NCBI GenBank assembly: GCA_964016885.1
Contig: CAXHJY010000736.1
Coordinates: 62,001 to 126,000 of the forward strand
DNA: 64,000 nucleotides
From: Eledone cirrhosa
Lineage: Eukaryota
Direction: 5' to 3'
Positions 14,981-64,000 of the stretch are shown one piece after another (within the stretch, counting starts at the first letter, position 1; every line of letters starts with the position of its first letter). The notes below the pieces were generated by a model, which did no database searches, had not been told where the DNA came from, and was given only the letters and a program-made list of their open reading frames with translations. The position numbers and the translations under genes were made by a program.

Positions 14981-17407
14981 GTCCATTTAGCTTGGGTTGG
15001 AATTTATCAATAAAATTATTTTCTTTGATTTTTCTCTTGATTTCACTTGGACTGTGTAATTTGTAGAATGGAAATATAAATATTCTCTGACCACATGTTG
15101 CTAGATGGTTACTCAGGGGTATCTGACGGACATTTGGGTCTCTGATTTGCTATCGGTGCACCCGTGCACGTTCCGATAGTGCATTTCCAGTTTGACCGAC
15201 ATATAGTTCTTCACAATTCGGGCATTTAATGCAGTAAATTAGATTTATGCTTTTGCAGTTCATATTTGCATTTGGGAATATTTTTCCAGTTTTTGTGTTC
15301 ATATATTGACCGGTGTGTATGGATTGACATGTGCCGCATCGACTATCATTGCATTTAGATATAGTGAATGATTTGTCTTTGTTGTTAAGGTCAAACTTTG
15401 CTTTTGTTAGTAATTGCTTCAAATTTTTCGGCTGTCTTTTACTAAGATTCAAAGCTCGGTCTGTGATTAAGCCTTTTAATTCATTACTTTGAGCAATGAT
15501 CGGTAGGTTTGCTTTGGCAGTGTTGAAGATATTCTGGTGACATGGGTTGTGTGTCATTATAAATGGTATGACCAGTTCTTGGTTTTTTTCTTCCTTGGGT
15601 TGTCCTAAGTTGTTGTATAGGTATTTTTATAGCCCGCTGTATGCCATTTTCTATAAGTAGAGATGGGTAGTTTTGTTTGAGCAAAAATTCTCTTAGTTCT
15701 GTTAGGCGTTTGTTCCTGGTATTCGTATCTTCTAAAATGGTACAAATTCTTCTGGCTAGGCAGTATGGGATGTTGCGTTTTGTATGAGGTGGATGGCACG
15801 ACTTAAAATTCAGATATTGATGGGTGTCTGTGTGTTTATAATATATATCCGTGGTAATGGTGGTGTCGTTTTTGATTACCATTATATCTAGGAATCGTAA
15901 TTTGGTAATACTCATCTCTTTTGTGAATTGGAGAGATGGGTGTAGGTTATTCAGGAAGATATTGAACTCATCCAGAGTACCTAGAGATTCTGTCCAGATG
16001 TTGAAACAGTCATCAAGGTATCTCTTCCAAGATTTTTCAATGTACTTTCTAAAGTCAGTGCTATATTTTTCCTCTATTTCTTGGTAGAGTTGTTGTTCTA
16101 AGTATCCCATTACAGAGTTCGTGTAAACGGGAGCAAACTTCGTTCCCATCACTGTGCCTCTAATTTGGATGTAATTCTTTCCATTGAAGAAGAAAGTGTT
16201 GTTTTCCAGAATAAGTTTGACTGCGTCTAATATAAATGGTGCTGTGAATCTGGTGGGAATCACTTCTCTATGTTTTTCCACCCAGTATTTAACCGCCTTT
16301 ATTCCTAAATCATGTGCAATGTTGGTGTAAAGGCTTACCACATCAAAACTAAGTAGAAGTGAATTCGTTTCCGTGGTTTTGGGAAGATGGGACAGGAAGT
16401 CGATATCATCCCGGATGAAACTGGGTATGTGAATATATAGTGGTTTCAAAATAATGTCAACAAAATTGCTTAGACGGTGGGTAGGGCATGTTGGACCAGC
16501 TATAATAGGTCTAAGTTTTAAGTCTTTTGGGTGTAGTAATTTAATGTACTCACTGTTTTGTTCTTTTACTGCCAGTTGGATTTCTTTTGACTTATGAACT
16601 TTCGGTAGGCCATACAGGTTGCTGGGTTTCGGCTCAAAATTGGTGATGTAGTCTCTTTCCTTATCAGTAAGTGAGTTGTGGTATTTTGAAGCCAGGTTGT
16701 TGATCTTCTTCATGATGTTGTGGTCTATATTTGACGGTATTTCATGATAGAATGTTGTGTCTTTCAGTTGTTCCTCAACCAAATCTTTGTAGTATTCAGC
16801 ATCCATTATAAAAATTGCACCCCCTTTATCTGCTTGTTTAATTATTATTGTTTTATCATTTTGTATACATTTCAGTGCAGACATTTCTGATTTGTTAATG
16901 TTTGGCCTAACATTAGTATTACGTCTAAGAGGAAATTTAGACAGGATGTCAATGTATTGGTTGAGATAGATATTTCTTCCTTTTGGCGGAGTGAAATTTG
17001 ATTTATTCTTTACTAGTGATTCATCACTCTCATTACTTTTATCAGCAAAGAATTCTACAAGTCGTAATTTTTAACAGAATTCTTGGGTATCCTCCTTCAG
17101 TTCTTGGTGGTTGACTGTTGGAGTCGGTGTGAATTTCAGTCTTTTTGACAGGATTTGCATTTCATCATTGGCAAGATCTCTTTTGGATAAATTAATTATT
17201 TTAGGATCTATGTGTACAGTTGTTTTGGGTATGTTTCCTCCTGGAGTTTTTCTTTTTCCGGTTTTTGTTGTCCTGACGTTAAAAAATAGATTTTTCTCTG
17301 TCCAGGATTTATATTCCTGTTGGTGTTTGTTTGATGAACTTTTGGTCGTGATATTATATTTGGTTTTGTTATGTTTTTTGTCCGATTTTTGGTATTTCCA
17401 TTATATA

Positions 17408-24095: not shown

Positions 24096-27000
24096 GATAG
24101 CAACTAACAGTGCTGCGATCGAATGTGGCTTTTTAGCCCAGCCAATGATCCAAAATGTCTTGCACAGAGTCGGCAACCAAAACATTTACTGGGAATAGTC
24201 GGCTGTGGTTGGAGTTCGTGTACTTTTGCATGTCGCTTGAGTCCTCCTGCTGATTTACATTCTCTACCACATGTTTGGCAAGCATGATGAGTAGCATCTC
24301 CAACAGCAGCCTGGTAGTCAACCACTGGTCTTACTTTATGACTGCGAAGATGACTTTCGAGTCCAGCTTTGCTTAGGCAGAGTCTCGCACAGACGCTGCA
24401 TGTCAGAAACATAGGAGGACCCTCGCCGTCTGGAAGTGCAACAGCAATACCCTTCCTCACGTCCCGCTTTACTTTCTCGTGTGCGATTCGAGATGCCTCA
24501 AAGGCAACTTTTCCCTCATATACAGTCTTTCTCCATTTATTACGATCAGCAGCAATATTTTCCCATGTATCAGCAGAGATGTTAGCGTCTTTCAGAGAGG
24601 CCTTCAAGGAATCCTTATACCTCTTTTTTGGTTTATGTGGCGGTCGTTTTCCTTTAACCAACTCTCCATAGAAGAGTTGTTTTGGTATTCTAGAATCCTT
24701 CATCCTGGCAAGGTGACCACTCCAACGGAGTCGCTGCTTAAGCACAAGAGCTTCTATACTGTCACACATAGAGCTTTCCAAAATCTCGACATCACTGATG
24801 TGGTCCCTCCAGCGAACGCCATGTATCCGTCTGAGACACATCTGATGGAAACGCTCCAATTGCTTAAGGTGGCGTCGATATGTGACCCAGGTCTCGCAGG
24901 CATAAAGAAGACAAGAGAGTACACATGCCCTGTACACCCTTACCTTTGTCCTCCTGCATATGTCTCGCCGACCCCAGAGTCGCCTTTCTAGCTTTCCGAA
25001 AGCATCACTTGCTTTCCTAATCCTAAGTGAGATTTCACTGTCAAGGTTGCCGTATCGATTGACAGTGCTTCCCAGGTAGACAAACTGATCAACCACTCCA
25101 AGTCGTTTGCCATACACATAGATGTTTGGTTCAGTGTACTGCCCACCAGGTGCAGGTTGGTACATGACGACGGTTTTCTTGAGACTGACAGTCAAACCCA
25201 GGGCAGTGCAAGCGTCAGAAAATACATTCAAAATGTGCTGCACATCACTCTCTGTGTGCGCTACAAGATCGCAATCATCTGCATACAAGAGGTCTCTTAT
25301 GACTGATGTAAATACTTTTGTCTTCGCAGCAAAGCGCCTGATGTTAAATATGCTGCCTGAGGTTCGATATCGGATGTAAACACCATGCTCGCAATTCCTG
25401 AATGCAACACAGAAAACCATTGCAAAGTATATGGCAAACAGGGTCGGTGCTGGAATATCCCCCTGTTTCACTCCATTTTTTACTGAGATAGGCTCCGACA
25501 TGTTACCTCCGACATTAACCCAAGCCTTCATGTCGTCATGGAAAGACCTAACTAAAGCAAGGAACTTATCAGGGCAACCAAGTTTCTGGAGAACCTTCCA
25601 TAATGCATCTCTGTTGACAGTATCGAAAGCCTTTGTCAGATCGATAAAAACCTGATACAGATCCAAGCCCTGTTCAATGCACTTCTCCTGGAGCTGTCTA
25701 GCTGAGAAGATCATATCAGTAGTGCCGCGTCCAACACGAAAACCAGATTGACTTTCAGGAAGGACACAATCTGCAATGTGTGTCAGCAGACGGTCCAGAA
25801 GCACCCTACATAAAACTTTCCCCACGACAGAAAGCAATGATATACCTCTGTAGTTCCCACAATCATTCCTGTTACCCTTTCCCTTGTACAAGACCACCAT
25901 TACTGCATCTCTCCAGTCCTCAGGCACGGATTCATTAGCCCATATCCTTCCAAACAGAGAGTGAAGATGTTGCAGGAGTCTCTCACCACCATATTGTAGG
26001 AGCTCAGCATGTATGCCATCCATACCTGGAGATCTTCCACTGTTCAGCTTCGAAATAGCCACTGCAACCTCCACAAGTGTCGGAGGCTCTGCGAGAGCTA
26101 CTTTCACAGGACTTTCCGGAATGAGATTGAGGAAATCTTCACTGACGACAGACGGCTGATTCAAAAGATCATCAAAGTGCTCCCGCCACCTTCGTAGAAT
26201 TCCCTGTGAGTCACGAAGAAGTTCTTTGCCATCCCTGCTGCGAATCGGTGTCACCAGAGAAGAAGACGGTCCATAAACCTCACGCAAGAGACTGTACAAC
26301 AGCTTTGTGTTATTGCAATCAGACGCAGTTTGTATCTCACCAGCCTTCTCACTCCACCACTGATCCTTCATCTGAGAAAGACTCCGCCTAACACGTGATT
26401 TTACATCCCTGAGCTCCTCATGCAACGTATTCCTCTCCTGTGGTCTTGCCGTCAAGTAGCGTGACAGAGCGCGCCTCTTATCAGCCAACAAGTCATCTAT
26501 ATGCACATCTTTCTCATTAAACCAGTCCTGATGTTTTCTCTGCACCAATCCCAGAACACGTCTGCCTACATCATAAACCGACTTTTTAAGGGTCGGCCAA
26601 TCCTCACCAAGATCTGCAGCCTGCATCTCTTCTTCCAATGTCCTCTTCACATTTTTATCCTTAAGACGAGCAGCATTCAATCTTTTGGGCAGGGTAACAC
26701 CAGGAGCCCGGATTTTACGTTTGGTGATTAGATTCACTTTTGCGCGTACCAGGCGGTGGTCCGTCCAGCACTCAGCTCCACGAAGAACACGAACACACCG
26801 CACATCCTGTCTGTCACGCATCCTGACTAGGACGTAGTCCAAAAGATGCCATTCCTTAGATGCAGGATGCATCCATGTGGTCTTGAATTTGTTCTTTTGT
26901 TGGAACATGGTGTTGGTAACACACAGATCCAGCTCCTCACACATCTGCAGCAAGAGCATACCATTGCTGTTACACTTTCCCACCCCATGCCTTCCGATTA

Positions 27001-27658
27001 CATTCCATGTGTTAAAATCCCTACCCACTCTAGCATTAAAGTCACCAAGCACGATGACTTTGTCTGCCTGAGGGATATTTCTTAAAACACCTTTCAAGGC
27101 ATGGTAAAAGGACAGTTTTTCTTCATCGACAGAATTCATAGTTGGAGCATACACACTCACCAGGGTAGCATATCTTCCCTTGTCCAGCGGAACTCTCATG
27201 GACATAAGACGCTCACTAATCCCCACTGGGAATTCTTCCAATTTATTCACCAGTGCAGTCTTAACAGCAAATCCTACCCCAGCCTCTCTTCTGGTTCCTT
27301 CATCTCTTCCTTTCCAGAAGAATGTATATTCTCCACAAAATTCCGTAAGATGACCATCTCCAGCTAACCTCGTCTCAGACAAAGCCACGATGTCAAGATC
27401 GTAACGTCGAAGCTCCTTCGCAACAAGAGCGGTCCTTCGTTCAGGACGCTCCAAAGAATCCCTGTCAAGCAGCGTCCGTACGTTCCAGCAGCCAAGACTA
27501 AATGCCCTGTTTGGCTCTATTACAATGGCACGATGACGGGCGGGCCCAGGTTGTGATAACTTGGGGCCCCTGCCCTTATTGCCAATGATCCTTTTTGTTC
27601 CAGAACCCAAATTGGCAATTATCTCGTTTACATTGTTCTGGAACATCATTGAATTGGG

Positions 27659-27698
<40 letters not shown>

Positions 27699-27703
27699 TA
27701 ATA

Positions 27704-27738
<35 letters not shown>

Positions 27739-48453: not shown

Positions 48454-48489
48454 TAGGTATAGGATTATCCAAGATGCAGTGATGGTTAA

Positions 48490-50640
48490 TTACTACACTA
48501 GAAATTAATATTATTCTCGAGGCTAGAAAAACCATTATTAAGTTCGATAACTGCTACTGGGAACGTAAGGACAGACCCACAAATTTCGATATTACCATGG
48601 GTTCCAACGACTCGGCGGAGGTCACGGATCTCGTGGGAATTTACATAGCCCACATATTACATAGTAGATTTAATAATCTACAGGGGGGGATATATAGAGA
48701 TGACGGGCTCTTATTAGTTAATAACTTGAATAACCAAAATCTTGAAAGGCTACGGAAAAATATTAGAAAATCTTTTAGTGAACTGGGCCTAAAAATAACA
48801 TACGAATACAATCTTAAGGTAGTAAACTTTCTGGACGTAACTCTTAATTTAAATACCGGACAGATACGACCCTTCCACAAGGTAAATGAGAACCTTACGT
48901 ATATTGACTTTAACTCTAACCACCCACTCTCCATGATCAAATCAGTTCCCCGGAGTATTTCTCTTAGAATCTCTCGCCTATCGTCTAACTCTGATATTTT
49001 TAGCGAACATGCTGAATACTACAATAATGCATTAAGGAATGCTGACCACCGGGATACAATAGAATACATCGATAGTAATTTCCACAACACACATAGCTCT
49101 ACACGTAATCAAGGGATACGTAACAGGGGGACTAAAACACAAGCACACACACACTATACTACCAGACATACTAATAATAGAAGTTCACCACCAAATAAAT
49201 CACGTTGTAGAAAGTATATCTGGTATAATCCTATTTTTAATGCCTCGATTAGTACAAAACTATCTCTTTCATTCTTTAAATTAATCAATAAACACTTCCC
49301 TAGTTCCCATAAGTACAGCAAAATTCTGAACTCCAAAACTATTAGACTATCATACTCCACGGCACCAAACCTTGAAGCATACATAAAAAAACTTAACTTA
49401 AGGCAATTAAACAACTCTACAAAACAAAACATTTTAGTAACAGGTGGGCAGAACGCAATATCTGCCTCCCAACCACTAAATGGGAGACGGATATTGCACA
49501 ACCCACCTGTACCGCTATCACAACCTATCCATGGTATACCCGCTACCCACAACAAAGCATGTAACTGCCATCTACCTGAAAGATGTCCATTGCAGAATGA
49601 ATGCCTAAAGTCCAACATTGTTTACCAATGCACGGTTGAATCGGACGACCAGAAATGGTATTATATCGGATCTACCACCACATCGTTTAAATCTCGCTGG
49701 TACCGTCATCGATTCTCAATCAAACATCAGAATCACCGTTTTGTGACCACGCTCGCCAACAAGACCTGGCAACTCCGTGAACACAACCAACAGTTCACCT
49801 TAAAATGGGATATACTTTCCAGCGCAAATGCATATCGGAGTGGTTTGAAGTACTGCAGGTTATGTAACCTTGAGCTATTTTACATACTAAAATCCAAAAA
49901 CAAACTACTTAACGATAGAATTGAACGATCATTATACTGCAACCACAAACTAAAAGCTAAATTCTCTCACTATAAAATAACTTAACATTCGAACCCGTAA
50001 CTATAACACCACTTTCTAGCTAACAACCTTCTCTTCTCCCCCACACTACAAGACAATACACTGCTTATCACTATACATGGTAACTCAGTACAATTCCTAG
50101 ATTACTACTACAAAACCAAAAGTTCACTCACCACATATACTTTATCTGTCCCCTCTCTACCTATATATCTCTCTCCACATCCATTACACTCTCTCTCTCT
50201 CACCTTTGACCTACCTCCCTCTCAACATCTATGAACTTGACCTCTGGGGCAATAAATAATTCCGACCTCAACTATCTACGCATCTCTCCAAAAGTAACTA
50301 ATAAAACCCCTACCATAACATTTTGATTAAGATATCTACAAGCCACTCTCTCCTACTTCTCCAACCCCTGCATATCTTTCCTTCTCTCTCCATCTTCTCT
50401 ACTTTTCTCTCTTCCTGTTCCACTCTATCTTCCCCAACAACCCCACTTAAGGGTTTTTACATTGTATATTTACCATTCTGCTCTGAGGAAACAGTGGTCA
50501 CAGCATTGGATATTCGAGTTCTGCAAATACTTGTGAATTTGCACGTAGCGGAACTAGGCTGCAGTACCACCGTGGAAACACTTGTAAGCACACGGAATAA
50601 ACTACCTTTTTAAGATGTCTACCTGTTATTATTCATTCTT
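48490..50640 (+). mobile_element. 5'-truncated Penelope-like element (Naiad-like) with uninterrupted RT-GIY-YIG frame
   Basis: FDITMGSNDSAE, GIYRDDGL, FLDVTL, CNC..CPL..C, IVYQC..YYIGST, CRLCxxE; stop at 49985; HHR in 3' region. Confidence 0.9.
50479..50590 (+). ncRNA. Hammerhead motif with long branched stem II
   Basis: TGCT-CTGAGGA-A-ACAGTGGT...ACCACCGT-G-GAAA-CACTTG-TA-AGCA. Confidence 0.65.
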
Positions 50641-57913: not shown

Positions 57914-59852
<1,939 letters not shown>

Positions 59853-59908
59853 CTATATATATATATACATATATACACATATATATATGTACATATATAT
59901 ATATATAT

Positions 59909-60019
<111 letters not shown>

Positions 60020-60102
60020 CATATATATATACACATATATATATATACATATATAAATATATATATACATATATATATACATATATATACATATACATAT
60101 AC

Positions 60103-60228
<126 letters not shown>

Positions 60229-60246
60229 ATATATATATATATATAT

Positions 60247-63200
60247 AAAAACAAATAACGAAACGAAATTAAATTTCGTTTCGCTTCTAACTCACTTTTG
60301 TATGACTGACGCTTAAACAATTAAGTTAAAGTGTACATCTACATATGTATACGGAAGTATTAGTATGCATATAAATACACACATGTATACATATGAATAC
60401 ACACATGTATACATATGTACATGTACTCAGCTTTTCACTAGACACTTTACAGTGAGTGTCAGCTAGTCTGTATGTAACCACACAGACGGACCGGGTTTTA
60501 GAGTCATACGGGTTTTCAAGGAAACACATTTCCTCTATTCTCCAGAGGGCCAGACAGGAACATTGGACTAGTTTCGATGTTATTACATCTCATCAGCAAT
60601 ATTTACCCATCTTCCGGCTTCTCTGGAGAATTGTAAAAGCACATATCGTTATATGCTTTTTCTATGAAAATTAGTAGTGGGTAGACCAATTTGCATAGAA
60701 CGTGAGTCATTGTACGCACCGGTTCAGCGGAAACGATAAAAACAAATAACGAAACGAAATTAAATTTCGTTTCGCTTCTAACTCACTTTTGTATGACTGA
60801 CGCTTAAACAATTAAGTTAAAGTGTACATCTACATATGTATACGGAAGTATTAGCATGCATATAAATACACACATGTATACATATGTACATGTACTCAGC
60901 TTTTCACTAGACACTTTACAGTGAGTGTCAGCTAGTCTGTATCTAACCACACAGACGGACCGGGTTTTAGAGTCATACGGGTTTTCAAGGAAACACATTT
61001 CCTCAATTCTCCAGAGGGCCAGACAGGAACATTGGACTAGTTTCGATGTTATTACATCTCATCAGCAATATTTACCCATCTTCCGGCTTCTCTGTAGAAT
61101 TGTAAAAGCACATATCGTTATATGCTTTTTCTATGAAATTTGAAAATTAGTAGTGGGTAGACCAATTTGCATAGAACGTGAGTCATTGTACGCACCGGTT
61201 CAGCGGAAACGATAAAAACAAATAACGAAACGAAATTAAATTTCGTTTCGCATCTAACTCACTTTTGTATGACTGACGCTTAAACAATTAAGTTAAAGTG
61301 TACATCTACATATGTATACGGAAGTATTAGTATGCATATAAATACACACATGTATACATATGTACATGTACTCAGCTTTTCACTAGACACTTTACAGTGA
61401 GTGTCAGCTAGTCTGTATGTAACCATTTTCATAGAAAAAGCATATAACGATATGTGCTTTTACAATTCTCCAGAGAAGCCGGAAGATGGGTAAATATTGC
61501 TGATGAGATGTAATAACATCGAAACTAGTCCATTGTTCCTGTCTGGCCCTCTGGAGAATAGAGGAAATGTGTTTCCTTGAAAACCCGTATGACTCTAAAA
61601 CCCGGTCCGTCTGTATGGTTACATACAGACTAGCTGACACTCACTGTAAAGTGTCTAGTGAAAAGCTGAGTACATGTACATATGTATACATGTGTGTATT
61701 TATATGCATACTAATACTTCCGTATACATATGTAGATGTACACTTTAACTTAATTGTTTAAGCGTCAGTCATACAAAAGTGAGTTAGAAGCGAAACGAAA
61801 TTTAATTTCGTTTCGTTATTTGTTTTTATCGTTTCCGCTGAACCGGTGCGTACAATGACTCACGTTCTATGCAAATTGGTCTACCCACTACTAATTTTCA
61901 TAGAAAAAGCATATAACGATATGTGCTTTTACAATTCTCCAGAGAAGCCGGAAGATGGGTAAATATTGCTGATGAGATGTAATAACATCGAAACTAGTCC
62001 AATGTTCCTGTCTGGCCCTCTGGAGAATAGAGGAAATGTGTTTCCTTGAAAACCCGTATGACTCTAAAACCCGGTCCGTCTGTGTGGTTACATACAGACT
62101 AGCTGACACTCACTGTAAAGTGTCTAGTGAAAAGCTGAGTACATGTACATATGTATACATGTGTGTATTTATATGCATACTAATACTTCCGTATACATAT
62201 GTAGATGTACACTTTAACTTAATTGTTTAAGCGTCAGTCATACAAAAGTGAGTTAGAAGCGAAACGAAATTTAATTTCGTTTCGTTATTTGTTTTTATCG
62301 TTTCCGCTGAACCGGTGCGTACAATGACTCACGTTCTATGCAAATTGGTCTACCCACTACTAATTTTCATAGAAAAAGCATATAACGATATGTGCTTTTA
62401 CAATTCTCCAGAGAAGCCGGATGATGGGTAAATATTGCTGATGAGATGTAATAACATCGAAACTAGTCCAATGTTCCTGTCTGGCCCTCTGGAGAATTGA
62501 GGAAATGTGTTTCCTTGAAAACCCGTATGACTCTAAAACCCGGTCCGTCTGTGTGGTTACATACAGACAAGCTGACACTCACTGTAAAGTGTCTAGTGAA
62601 AAGCTGAGTACATGTACATATGTATACATGTGTGTATTTATATGCATACTAATACTTCCGTATACATATGTAGATGTACACTTTAACTTAATTGTTTAAG
62701 CGTCAGTCATACAAAAGTGAATTAGAAGCGAAACGAAATTTAATTTCGTTTCGTTATTTGTTTTTATCGTTTCCGCTGAACCGGTGCGTACAATGAACTC
62801 ACGTTCTATGCAAATTGGTCTATCCACTACTAATTTTCATAGAAAAAGCATATAACGATATGTGCTTTTACAATTCTCCAGAGAAGCCGGAAGATGGGTA
62901 AATATTGCTGATGAGATGTAATAACATCGAAACTAGTCCAATGTTCCTGTCTGGCCCTCTGTAGAATTGAGGAAATGTGTTTCCTTGAAAACCCGTATGA
63001 CTCTAAAACCCGGTCCGTCTGTGTGGTTACATACAGACTAGCTGACACTCACTGTAAAGTGTCTAGTGAAAAGCTGAGTACATGTACATATGTATACATG
63101 TGTGTATTTATATGCATACTAATACTTCCGTATACATATGTAGATGTACACTTTAACTTAATTGTTTAAGCGTCAGTCATACAAAAGTGAGTTAGAAGCG

Positions 63201-64000
63201 AAACGAAATTTAATTTCGTTTCGTTATTTGTTTTTATCTTTTCCGCTGAACCGGTGCGTACAATGACTCACGTTCTATGCAAATTGGTCTACCCACTACT
63301 AATTTTCATAGAAAAAGCATATAACGATATGTGCTTTTACAATTCTCCAGAGAAGCCGGAAGATGGGTAAATATTGCTGATGAGATGTAATAACATCGAA
63401 ACTAGTCCAATGTTCCTGTCTGGCCCTCTGGAGAATAGAGGAAATGTGTTTCCTTGAAAACCCGTATGACTCTAAAACCCGGTCCGTCTGTGTGGTTACA
63501 TACAGACTAGCTGACACTCACTATAAAGTGTCTAGTGAAAAGCTAAGTACATGTACATATGTATACATGTGTGTATTTATATGCATACTAATACTTCCGT
63601 ATACATATGTAGATGTACACTTTAACTTAATTGTTTAAGCGTCAGTAATACAAAAGTGAGTTAGAAGCGAAACGAAATTTAATTTTGTTTCGTTATTTGT
63701 TTTTATCGTTTCCGCTGAACCGGTGCGTACAATGAACTCACGTTCTATGCAAATTGGTCTACCCACTACTAATTTTCATAGAAAAAGCATATAACGATAT
63801 GTGCTTTTACAATTCTCCAGAGAAGCCGGAAGATGGGTAAATATTGCTGATGAGATGTAATAACATCGAAACTAGTCCAATGTTCCTGTCTGGCCCTCTG
63901 GAGAATAGAGGAAATGTGTTTCCTTGAAAACCCGTATGACTCTAAAACCCGGTCCGTCTGTGTGGTTACATACAGACTAGCTGACACTCACTGTAAAGTG
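60247..64000. repeat. 469/470-bp hammerhead-ribozyme satellite (retrozyme-like array) with internal inversion
   Basis: About 2.5 units in one orientation (60247-61425), then more than 5 units reversed to the window end; units differ by only a few bases; one HHR per unit. Confidence 0.95.
61962..62006 (+). ncRNA. Canonical type I hammerhead ribozyme (representative of 8 copies)
   Basis: AATATTG-CTGATGA-GATGT-aata-ACATC-GAAA-CTAG-TC-CAATGTT; predicted cleavage after 61530, 61999, 62468, 62938, 63407, 63877 (+); minus-strand copies 60559-60603 and 61028-61072. Confidence 0.93.

Follow-up and report, generated by a model that had tools for sequence, protein, structure and literature searches.

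Insertion anatomy of a hammerhead retrozyme in Eledone cirrhosa points to mobilisation by a Penelope-like element

The 64,000-nucleotide stretch of Eledone cirrhosa DNA analysed here (contig CAXHJY010000736.1, positions 62,001 to 126,000; hereafter the window) ends in a tandem array of units of about 469 bp, each of which carries a hammerhead ribozyme motif. Comparison of this array with copies elsewhere in the 3.0 Gb genome suggests that it is quite probably a non-autonomous retrozyme of the type without long terminal repeats (non-LTR) that owes its mobility to a Penelope-like element (PLE) acting in trans. Taken by itself, mobilisation driven by a PLE is highly probable. A first-pass annotation of the window had described the array as a 469-bp satellite. 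The unit length was right (469–470 bp, with two longer units in the minus arm that contain 7-bp and 22-bp duplications) and the satellite label was misleading, the array being one two-armed insertion; the strand inversion, which places two of the eight copies on the minus strand, had been overlooked. Its proposal of a young non-autonomous non-LTR retrozyme agrees with the dispersed short arrays, the type I hammerhead in each unit, the lack of a credible open reading frame (ORF) and the junctions of retrotransposon type. The longest Met-initiated ORF on the circular unit is 64 aa, in line with its statement that no credible ORF is present.

The array consists of about 2.5 minus-strand units joined to about 6.7 forward units, with (TA)n on both sides, and forms one mobile insertion. 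BLAST places the strand flip at 61425, and Tandem Repeats Finder splits the array into 60385–61425 and 61425–64000. Unit positions are numbered from q1, the first base after the GUC cleavage site. The right arm continues for 576 bases beyond the window to G000:C763:126576, where it stops in a TA run at q230, the shorter of two recurrent ends. The insertion lies in a TA run that flanks a truncated PLE at 58039..59853. The unit has 36.9% GC; an ORF check of the circular unit revealed no reverse transcriptase (RT) or GIY-YIG ORF, and a scan with the consensus revealed no Pol III A or B box.

Ninety insertions were compared, drawn from the top BLAST matches, the first matches on contig C1, the haplotype lists and one chance find (L121; L numbers denote loci). 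Loci were mostly selected by an intact core; the duplicates L029 (of L028) and L041 (of L040) were excluded before the count, as was the L063 array, the far end of which was not reached, and L044 was counted as one-armed. An inverted 5′-truncated copy lies beside the main copy in 62 of the 90. Among the 59 two-armed insertions with both ends visible, 54 combine a long end A (q297–303) with a short end B (q222–235), none has two A ends or two B ends, and five have one non-standard end. The two sites are fixed (q299 and q225–230), about 70 nt apart, and neither falls at the cleavage site; end A lies 13 nt past a hairpin, in a T-rich stretch. Of the remaining 28 insertions, 27 are truncated on the 5′ side and have a standard end (A or B), while the last is cut off. 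(TA)3 or longer abuts 132 of 143 standard ends, as against 13% of window positions. Target duplications of 12–16 bp, short homologies included, were found at nine of ten sites hand-picked for readable flanks; duplications longer than 4 bp without LTRs are expected of non-LTR retrozymes. No LTR layout was seen in the 90 insertions (primer-binding site and polypurine tract were not searched for), and there is no poly(A) signal. Inner junctions are scattered over the whole unit and mostly show overlaps of a few bases or small inserts, a clean start at the cleavage site being present in one junction string only (L048). At the start sites, target and RNA can pair over 2–5 nt.

The segment between the two ends (q226–299) forms a tail that only one arm reaches, and it is the most conserved region of the unit, with inherited variants at 3 of 74 positions as compared to 54 of 323 elsewhere (p 0.003). 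The two-end layout is kept across subfamilies that are 86–100% alike. A homologous sister family shows the same two ends 56 nt apart (e.g. L134, L141, L144), and thus the end sites follow sequence or structure and not a fixed distance.

This anatomy resembles that of PLEs, for which an inverted 5′-truncated copy, a one-sided tail and a bias towards (TA)n are described as hallmarks (PMC8557442). Frangieh et al. reported that purified PLE protein of the anole not only cuts both strands of AT-rich DNA but also extends them, and that its reverse transcription starts at two internal sites bounding the tail (PMC11167929). By analogy, the retrozyme layout is what such two-site, two-strand priming predicts. 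PLEs and the retrozyme co-occur in this genome. A young PLE family, present in the window (4030–4521 and from 41044) and at L146–L162, has frames of up to 1,280 aa and 150 matches at 99–100% protein identity; the best homolog of a local PLE protein is from Octopus vulgaris (69% identity). Copies of this family end in (TA)n, and eight of nine two-armed copies carry a 60-nt tail on one arm, giving one short and one long end. Its endonuclease region contains a CX4CxxC linker, which has been tied to (TA)n targeting by Craig et al. (PMC8557442).

The exact core has 1,463 matches genome-wide and the backward-read control pattern none; the relaxed core has 9,501 and a 25-mer of the tail 10,692, again without control matches. 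These counts suggest about 10,000 units genome-wide and, by extrapolation from the approximately 25 loci that hold the first 100 relaxed-core matches, roughly 2,400 loci. Unit length is 465–471 bp across the subfamilies. The sister family (L110, L122, L126–L145) has units of 422–502 bp and 27,121 core matches; in its hammerhead, stem II begins with U-U at the base and the cleavage site is GUA. Together the two families amount to about half a percent of the genome, as estimated from match counts multiplied by unit length. Most insertions contain one to five units and lie at dispersed loci, not in the few long clustered arrays of a classical satellite. Judged from the sequence, the family is real and young, and another member of the already known non-LTR retrozymes. 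One array exceeds 30 kb (L063–L065, L170; G000:C1:95620986-95655000 and beyond) and shows in part a higher-order pattern of roughly seven units; it looks like a retrozyme insertion becoming a satellite. At L066 an insertion is interrupted by a later block of about 4.7 kb from a long interspersed nuclear element (LINE). Retrozymes often sit in TA runs beside PLE copies or other retrozymes, which results in nested stacks (L059, L063, L048, L121, L122).

Each window unit contains one full hammerhead core, as had been claimed at first pass. Eight exact copies of a 31-nt core, composed of CUGAUGA, stem II GAUGU/ACAUC, GAAA, ACUAGU and GUC, are present, six on the plus and two on the minus strand (C3 at +61500, 61969, 62438, 62908, 63377 and 63847, and at −61065 and −60596). 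The invariance reported for these copies applies to the core, while stem I varies (the copy at 61500 reads CAUUGUU); among eight units that are about 99% alike, invariance is weak evidence by itself. All eight match Rfam Hammerhead_HH9 with 24.7–28.2 bits (E 9e-4 to 0.013), short of the gathering score, which is 52; Hammerhead_1, the model named in the first-pass annotation, is not among the matches listed, from which three overlapping clan matches were left out. Rfam microRNA matches, likewise all below the gathering score, were rejected as they correspond to the AU-rich hairpin and the TA runs. The circular fold of one window unit has an energy of −151.7 kcal/mol (z −9.3 against 40 shuffles), and the minimum-energy structure contains stems I and II and both of the additional hairpins that the annotation had named. 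In a co-fold of two copies the ACUAGU duplex of stem III did not form.

Comparison of the two families is more informative about the ribozyme. In 23 sequences, which had been chosen by core pattern, C3–A9, G12–A14, A15.1–U16.1 and the NUH site are invariant, and the cleavage-site triplets across both families are GUC, GUU or GUA. Stems I and II covary, with six pairs changed on both sides among 22 distinct sequences, although these are related and so represent few independent events; pairing in the two stems is 91.7%, as compared to 34–50% once the partners are slid. Because of this covariation across families, the ribozyme fold appears to have been kept. Stem III (ACUAGU) never varies in either family. 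It had been proposed that a core mutating as freely as the rest of the unit would speak against the retrozyme reading, and on this point the outcome, at loci mostly picked by an intact core, is mixed: inherited variants occur at 0 of 11 core positions and at 54 of 323 elsewhere (p 0.22), and within-insertion mutations at 2.9 per 1000 in the core and 4.9 elsewhere, differences that favour the core and are not significant. Covariation with the sister family thus seems a stronger support for the ribozyme than core conservation. We conclude that the predicted hammerhead in each unit of about 469 bp is real, and its protein-free cleavage in vitro is somewhat more likely than not.

Arm lengths bear on the nature of the template. 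From a linear monomer that has been cleaved, no arm could exceed 299 nt, and 96 of 110 arms are longer, with inner stops spread over the unit, a count in which selection by intact core favours arms that cross the cleavage site. The template would thus be a circle or an uncleaved multimer, and we lean towards a circle as the usual one. At L043, nine rare A>G changes are common to the units, with no other rare fixed change; this marker pattern has three matches in the genome, all at that locus. Seven A>G sites of L043 recur in its innermost partial unit and in the full unit that follows; they lie within q339–q435, starting about 5 nt away from the junction. At L174, A>G is seen at five sites in all 14–15 units. 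These runs are tentatively regarded as possible traces of one edited circle copied repeatedly. Heavy A-to-I editing occurs in coleoid cephalopods. One haplotype is represented by approximately 57–60 identical full units (two fetched stretches overlap) and six length variants in six insertions, with arms of up to 18 units. A339G, which was picked after two sightings and is therefore only partly independent evidence, occurs in 126 units as compared to four for the control T340C. A family-wide ADAR bias was considered and not upheld, as a first count of 20 A>G against 6 T>C became 5 against 4 in a stricter count without L043. Within-insertion variants on the hammerhead strand show 57 T>C and 28 A>G, or 24 and 16 without the L063 array. 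Seven sequencing runs contain part of the unit, one of them guessed to be RNA (share 0.05), and give no evidence either way on expression.

Several observations weigh against copying of an edited circle by a PLE. The A>G excess depends on one locus (14 A>G to 4 T>C with L043, 5 to 4 without; insertion sign test 5 to 4), and A>G in A-U pairs is structurally tolerated too, through G-U. Units 2 and 3 of L043 share a mutation that is absent from unit 1, so part of the repetition there is later duplication. A rare variant is fixed on both arms in only 10 of 44 two-armed insertions, and at L018 one rare base is shared by the two outermost units, one on each arm, and by no others, in keeping with a template that was a mixed multimer. 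With regard to the machinery, one of the nine two-armed copies of the young PLE has two long ends, and the tails here are 56–74 nt as compared to 30–40 bp in the literature. The young PLE tail folds differently from that of the retrozyme (17 loci, compared by eye and fold only). No autonomous PLE similar to the unit or its tail was found among 39 GIY-YIG loci, taken from 10,597 first-look candidates, and the rest of the window; a BLAST search of the unit against these 39 loci, against L125 and against the window's first 60 kb returned only retrozyme copies and the sister family, and no PLE frame adjoins 20 sister-family loci. Hammerhead cleavage is not needed for insertion of the anole PLE (PMC11167929), and eight of nine Xenopus retrozyme dimers remained uncleaved in vitro (Li, Clavereau, Pollet 2026, bioRxiv 10.64898/2026.07.22.740005).

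The same PLE machinery could instead copy an uncleaved linear multimer derived from a source array, with circles absent or a by-product and the ribozyme mattering little for insertion. Such a template would accommodate the insertion of hammerhead mutants of the anole PLE (PMC11167929) and the register-matched variants in the two outer units of L018; identical long arms could stem from a homogeneous source array, and recurrent A>G sites could be inherited from it. It fits less well with L043, where independent editing of two units would not give the seven A>G changes shared by the inner partial unit and its neighbour, where the haplotype marker is found at no other locus, or with the covariation of stems I and II across families. 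We consider it a possible but rather unlikely account. The family might alternatively descend from an orphan PLE pseudo-LTR (pLTR), turned into a tandem repeat that multiplies like a satellite, chiefly through duplication at the DNA level. A birth from PLE termini has been proposed by Li et al. (bioRxiv 10.64898/2026.07.22.740005), and the array of more than 30 kb, with its partial higher-order pattern, is of the kind expected. Most insertions, with one to five units, have their own flanks, fixed ends and target duplications, and no PLE ORF adjoins the unit in the translated loci. This origin is very improbable; DNA-level spread as the main mode is largely refuted by the per-locus target duplications and stands as a secondary process.

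Two further accounts do without a PLE. An abundant RTE-like LINE might mobilise the units through L1-style twin priming. LINE frames are common in the window and at the loci, and twin priming produces 5′ inversions. Here the second priming site is fixed, the arms cover overlapping parts of the unit and either may extend over many units, no poly(A) signal is present and the local PLE copies share the layout, which makes a LINE very unlikely. The hairpin and T-rich stretch preceding end A, and a frame in the window that we take to be Helitron-like, recall a non-autonomous element of the Helitron type moving by rolling-circle DNA replication, and inverted duplications are a known artefact of long-read assembly that fold-back could create. 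Neither a Helitron nor an artefact fits target duplications of 12–16 bp combined with asymmetric fixed ends, non-template bases at some junctions and a covarying ribozyme, and both are extremely unlikely.

With a circle as template and a PLE protein as the enzyme, the insertions could be explained as follows. Tandem copies would be transcribed on the hammerhead strand and cut at GUC or GUU, probably by way of a double hammerhead that the palindromic ACUAGU allows, and the monomer would then be ligated to a circle. The RT/GIY-YIG protein of a PLE would bind the conserved tail and nick both strands of AT-rich DNA 12–16 nt apart, and each 3′ overhang would prime cDNA at one of the two sites through 2–5 nt of AU pairing. 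The RT would pass back over the ligation junction and complete anything from less than one turn to about 18, the two cDNAs would be joined by short-homology or nearly blunt end joining, and a few arrays may expand later at the DNA level. In its full form, namely that the insertions record rolling-circle, target-primed reverse transcription of a ribozyme-made and sometimes ADAR-edited circle by a PLE protein, which primes at two fixed sites from either strand of a staggered (TA)n cut and goes round for up to about 18 turns, this scheme is evenly poised between right and wrong.

Animal non-LTR retrozymes are a class already described since 2020. Those of coral, mussel and axolotl (Cervera and de la Pena 2020, PMC7229834) are alike in tandem units with one type I hammerhead each, a GC content below 50%, no ORF or LTR features, a highly paired predicted circle and the presence of PLEs in the same genome. 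The axolotl retrozyme also shares the short palindromic helix III. The unit is longer here (465–471 bp as compared to 150–450 bp), and the circular RNA is here only predicted. PLEs are named in that paper merely as a strong candidate, and its main text does not use the words 'inverted', 'target site', 'microsatellite' or 'octopus'; PLE mobilisation of retrozymes is proposed there and in PMC7761336 and PMC4209133. The vertebrate non-LTR retrozymes of Li, Clavereau and Pollet (2026, bioRxiv 10.64898/2026.07.22.740005), with consensus lengths of 51–972 bp, were concluded to be non-autonomous PLE derivatives on the basis of co-occurrence and pLTR homology in 35 species that include no mollusc, and the portions of that text available to us mention neither 'tail' nor 'junction'. 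In contrast, the link presented here is a junction signature, and no pLTR homology was found.

Among PLEs themselves, the anole Poseidon PAc (PMC11167929) and Neptune, Naiad and the Hydra structure (PMC8557442) share partial tandems, an inverted 5′-truncated copy, a tail that two RT start sites leave at one end and AT-rich or (TA)n targets. The retrozyme differs from them in having no RT or GIY-YIG ORF, a tail of 69–74 nt, arms that are multiples of one 469-nt unit, and the target/RNA pairing of 2–5 nt seen at its start sites. MRC1 and other non-autonomous Chlamys PLEs of Chlamydomonas are likewise non-coding, PLE-dependent and frequently present as several copies arranged head-to-tail; they resemble an autonomous partner at the 3′ end, whereas for the retrozyme none was found, and hammerheads, which the retrozyme has, are missing from most Chlamys elements (PMC8557442). 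Newt satellite 2, an amphibian repeat with a 330-bp unit, is also a dispersed tandem repeat and is likened by description only (PMC2114352); its hammerhead has a weak helix III and cleaves as a dimer (PMC7229834). A literature search, outside which lay most subscription journals and Repbase/Dfam, yielded neither a retrozyme from a cephalopod nor a study of the junctions of animal retrozymes. The giant squid genome paper, in the part available, only counts hammerhead matches (235; PMC6962438).

Coordinates of the retrozyme features in the window are collected in Table 1.

Table 1. Features of the retrozyme insertion and its immediate neighbourhood (window coordinates)
Feature	Position	Strand	Remarks
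Truncated Penelope-like element	58039..59853	.	neighbouring context, outside the retrozyme; inverted arms, one long and one short end
Left (TA)n target run	59854..60244	.	
Inverted (left) arm, ~2.5 units	60245..61425	-	outer end is long end A (q299), inner end q86
74-nt tail (q226–299)	60245..60318	-	reached by one arm only; contains CGAAACGAAAU/AUUUCGUUUCG hairpin
Hammerhead core copy 1	60566..60596	-	
Hammerhead core copy 2	61035..61065	-	
Inversion junction of the two arms	61425..61425	.	1-nt overlap
Forward (right) arm, ~6.7 units	61425..64000	+	starts at q364
Hammerhead core copy 3	61500..61530	+	one stem I mismatch
Hammerhead core copy 4	61969..61999	+	predicted cleavage after 61999
Hammerhead core copy 5	62438..62468	+	
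Hammerhead core copy 6	62908..62938	+	
Cleavage-to-cleavage monomer, 469 nt	62939..63407	+	predicted circular RNA
Long AU-rich hairpin (q140–212)	63078..63150	+	directly before short end; counterpart at the same place in the sister family
Hammerhead core copy 7	63377..63407	+	
Hammerhead core copy 8	63847..63877	+	

The unit further contains the motif ATGCAAAT at q339–346 (window 63277–63284), which is present also in one sister subfamily and which we take to be the octamer of promoters of the small nuclear RNA type. It is probably dispensable, since three A>G changes have removed it from the youngest haplotype (the L084 group), which spread all the same. A second hammerhead tandem family occupies 4532–5488 of the window, with a 310-bp unit, a CUGAAGA core, a palindromic ACGCGU and a predicted cut after UA; its arms are inverted, and a TA run follows the right one. 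Short inverted-arm elements with hammerhead-like cores that end in TA are located around 40435/40518, 44239/44376 and 55188/57700, and have one long and one short end about 85–96 nt apart. The frames at 7668–11872, 15150–17070, 24104–27736 and 48483–49985 presumably belong, by their motifs, to Helitron-like helicases, to two other PLE families and to a LINE (a frame of 1,210 aa); among them Pfam gave weak support, for RT at 15487–17070 only.

According to a 2020 review, animal retrozymes contain no conserved motif that would reveal their mobilising retrotransposon (PMC7761336). What is new here is the insertion anatomy, namely the junction signature, the conserved tail and two predicted RT start sites. 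The link between retrozymes and PLEs, which previously rested on co-occurrence and homology, can now be drawn from a junction signature found beside young PLEs with long open frames. Since the signature, the tail, the start sites and the young PLEs are at hand, the model of a circle copied by a PLE can be tested in the existing in vitro PLE assay. If true, it would supply the missing integration step of animal retrozymes, together with a protein-recognition element of about 75 nt that loads the circle onto the PLE.

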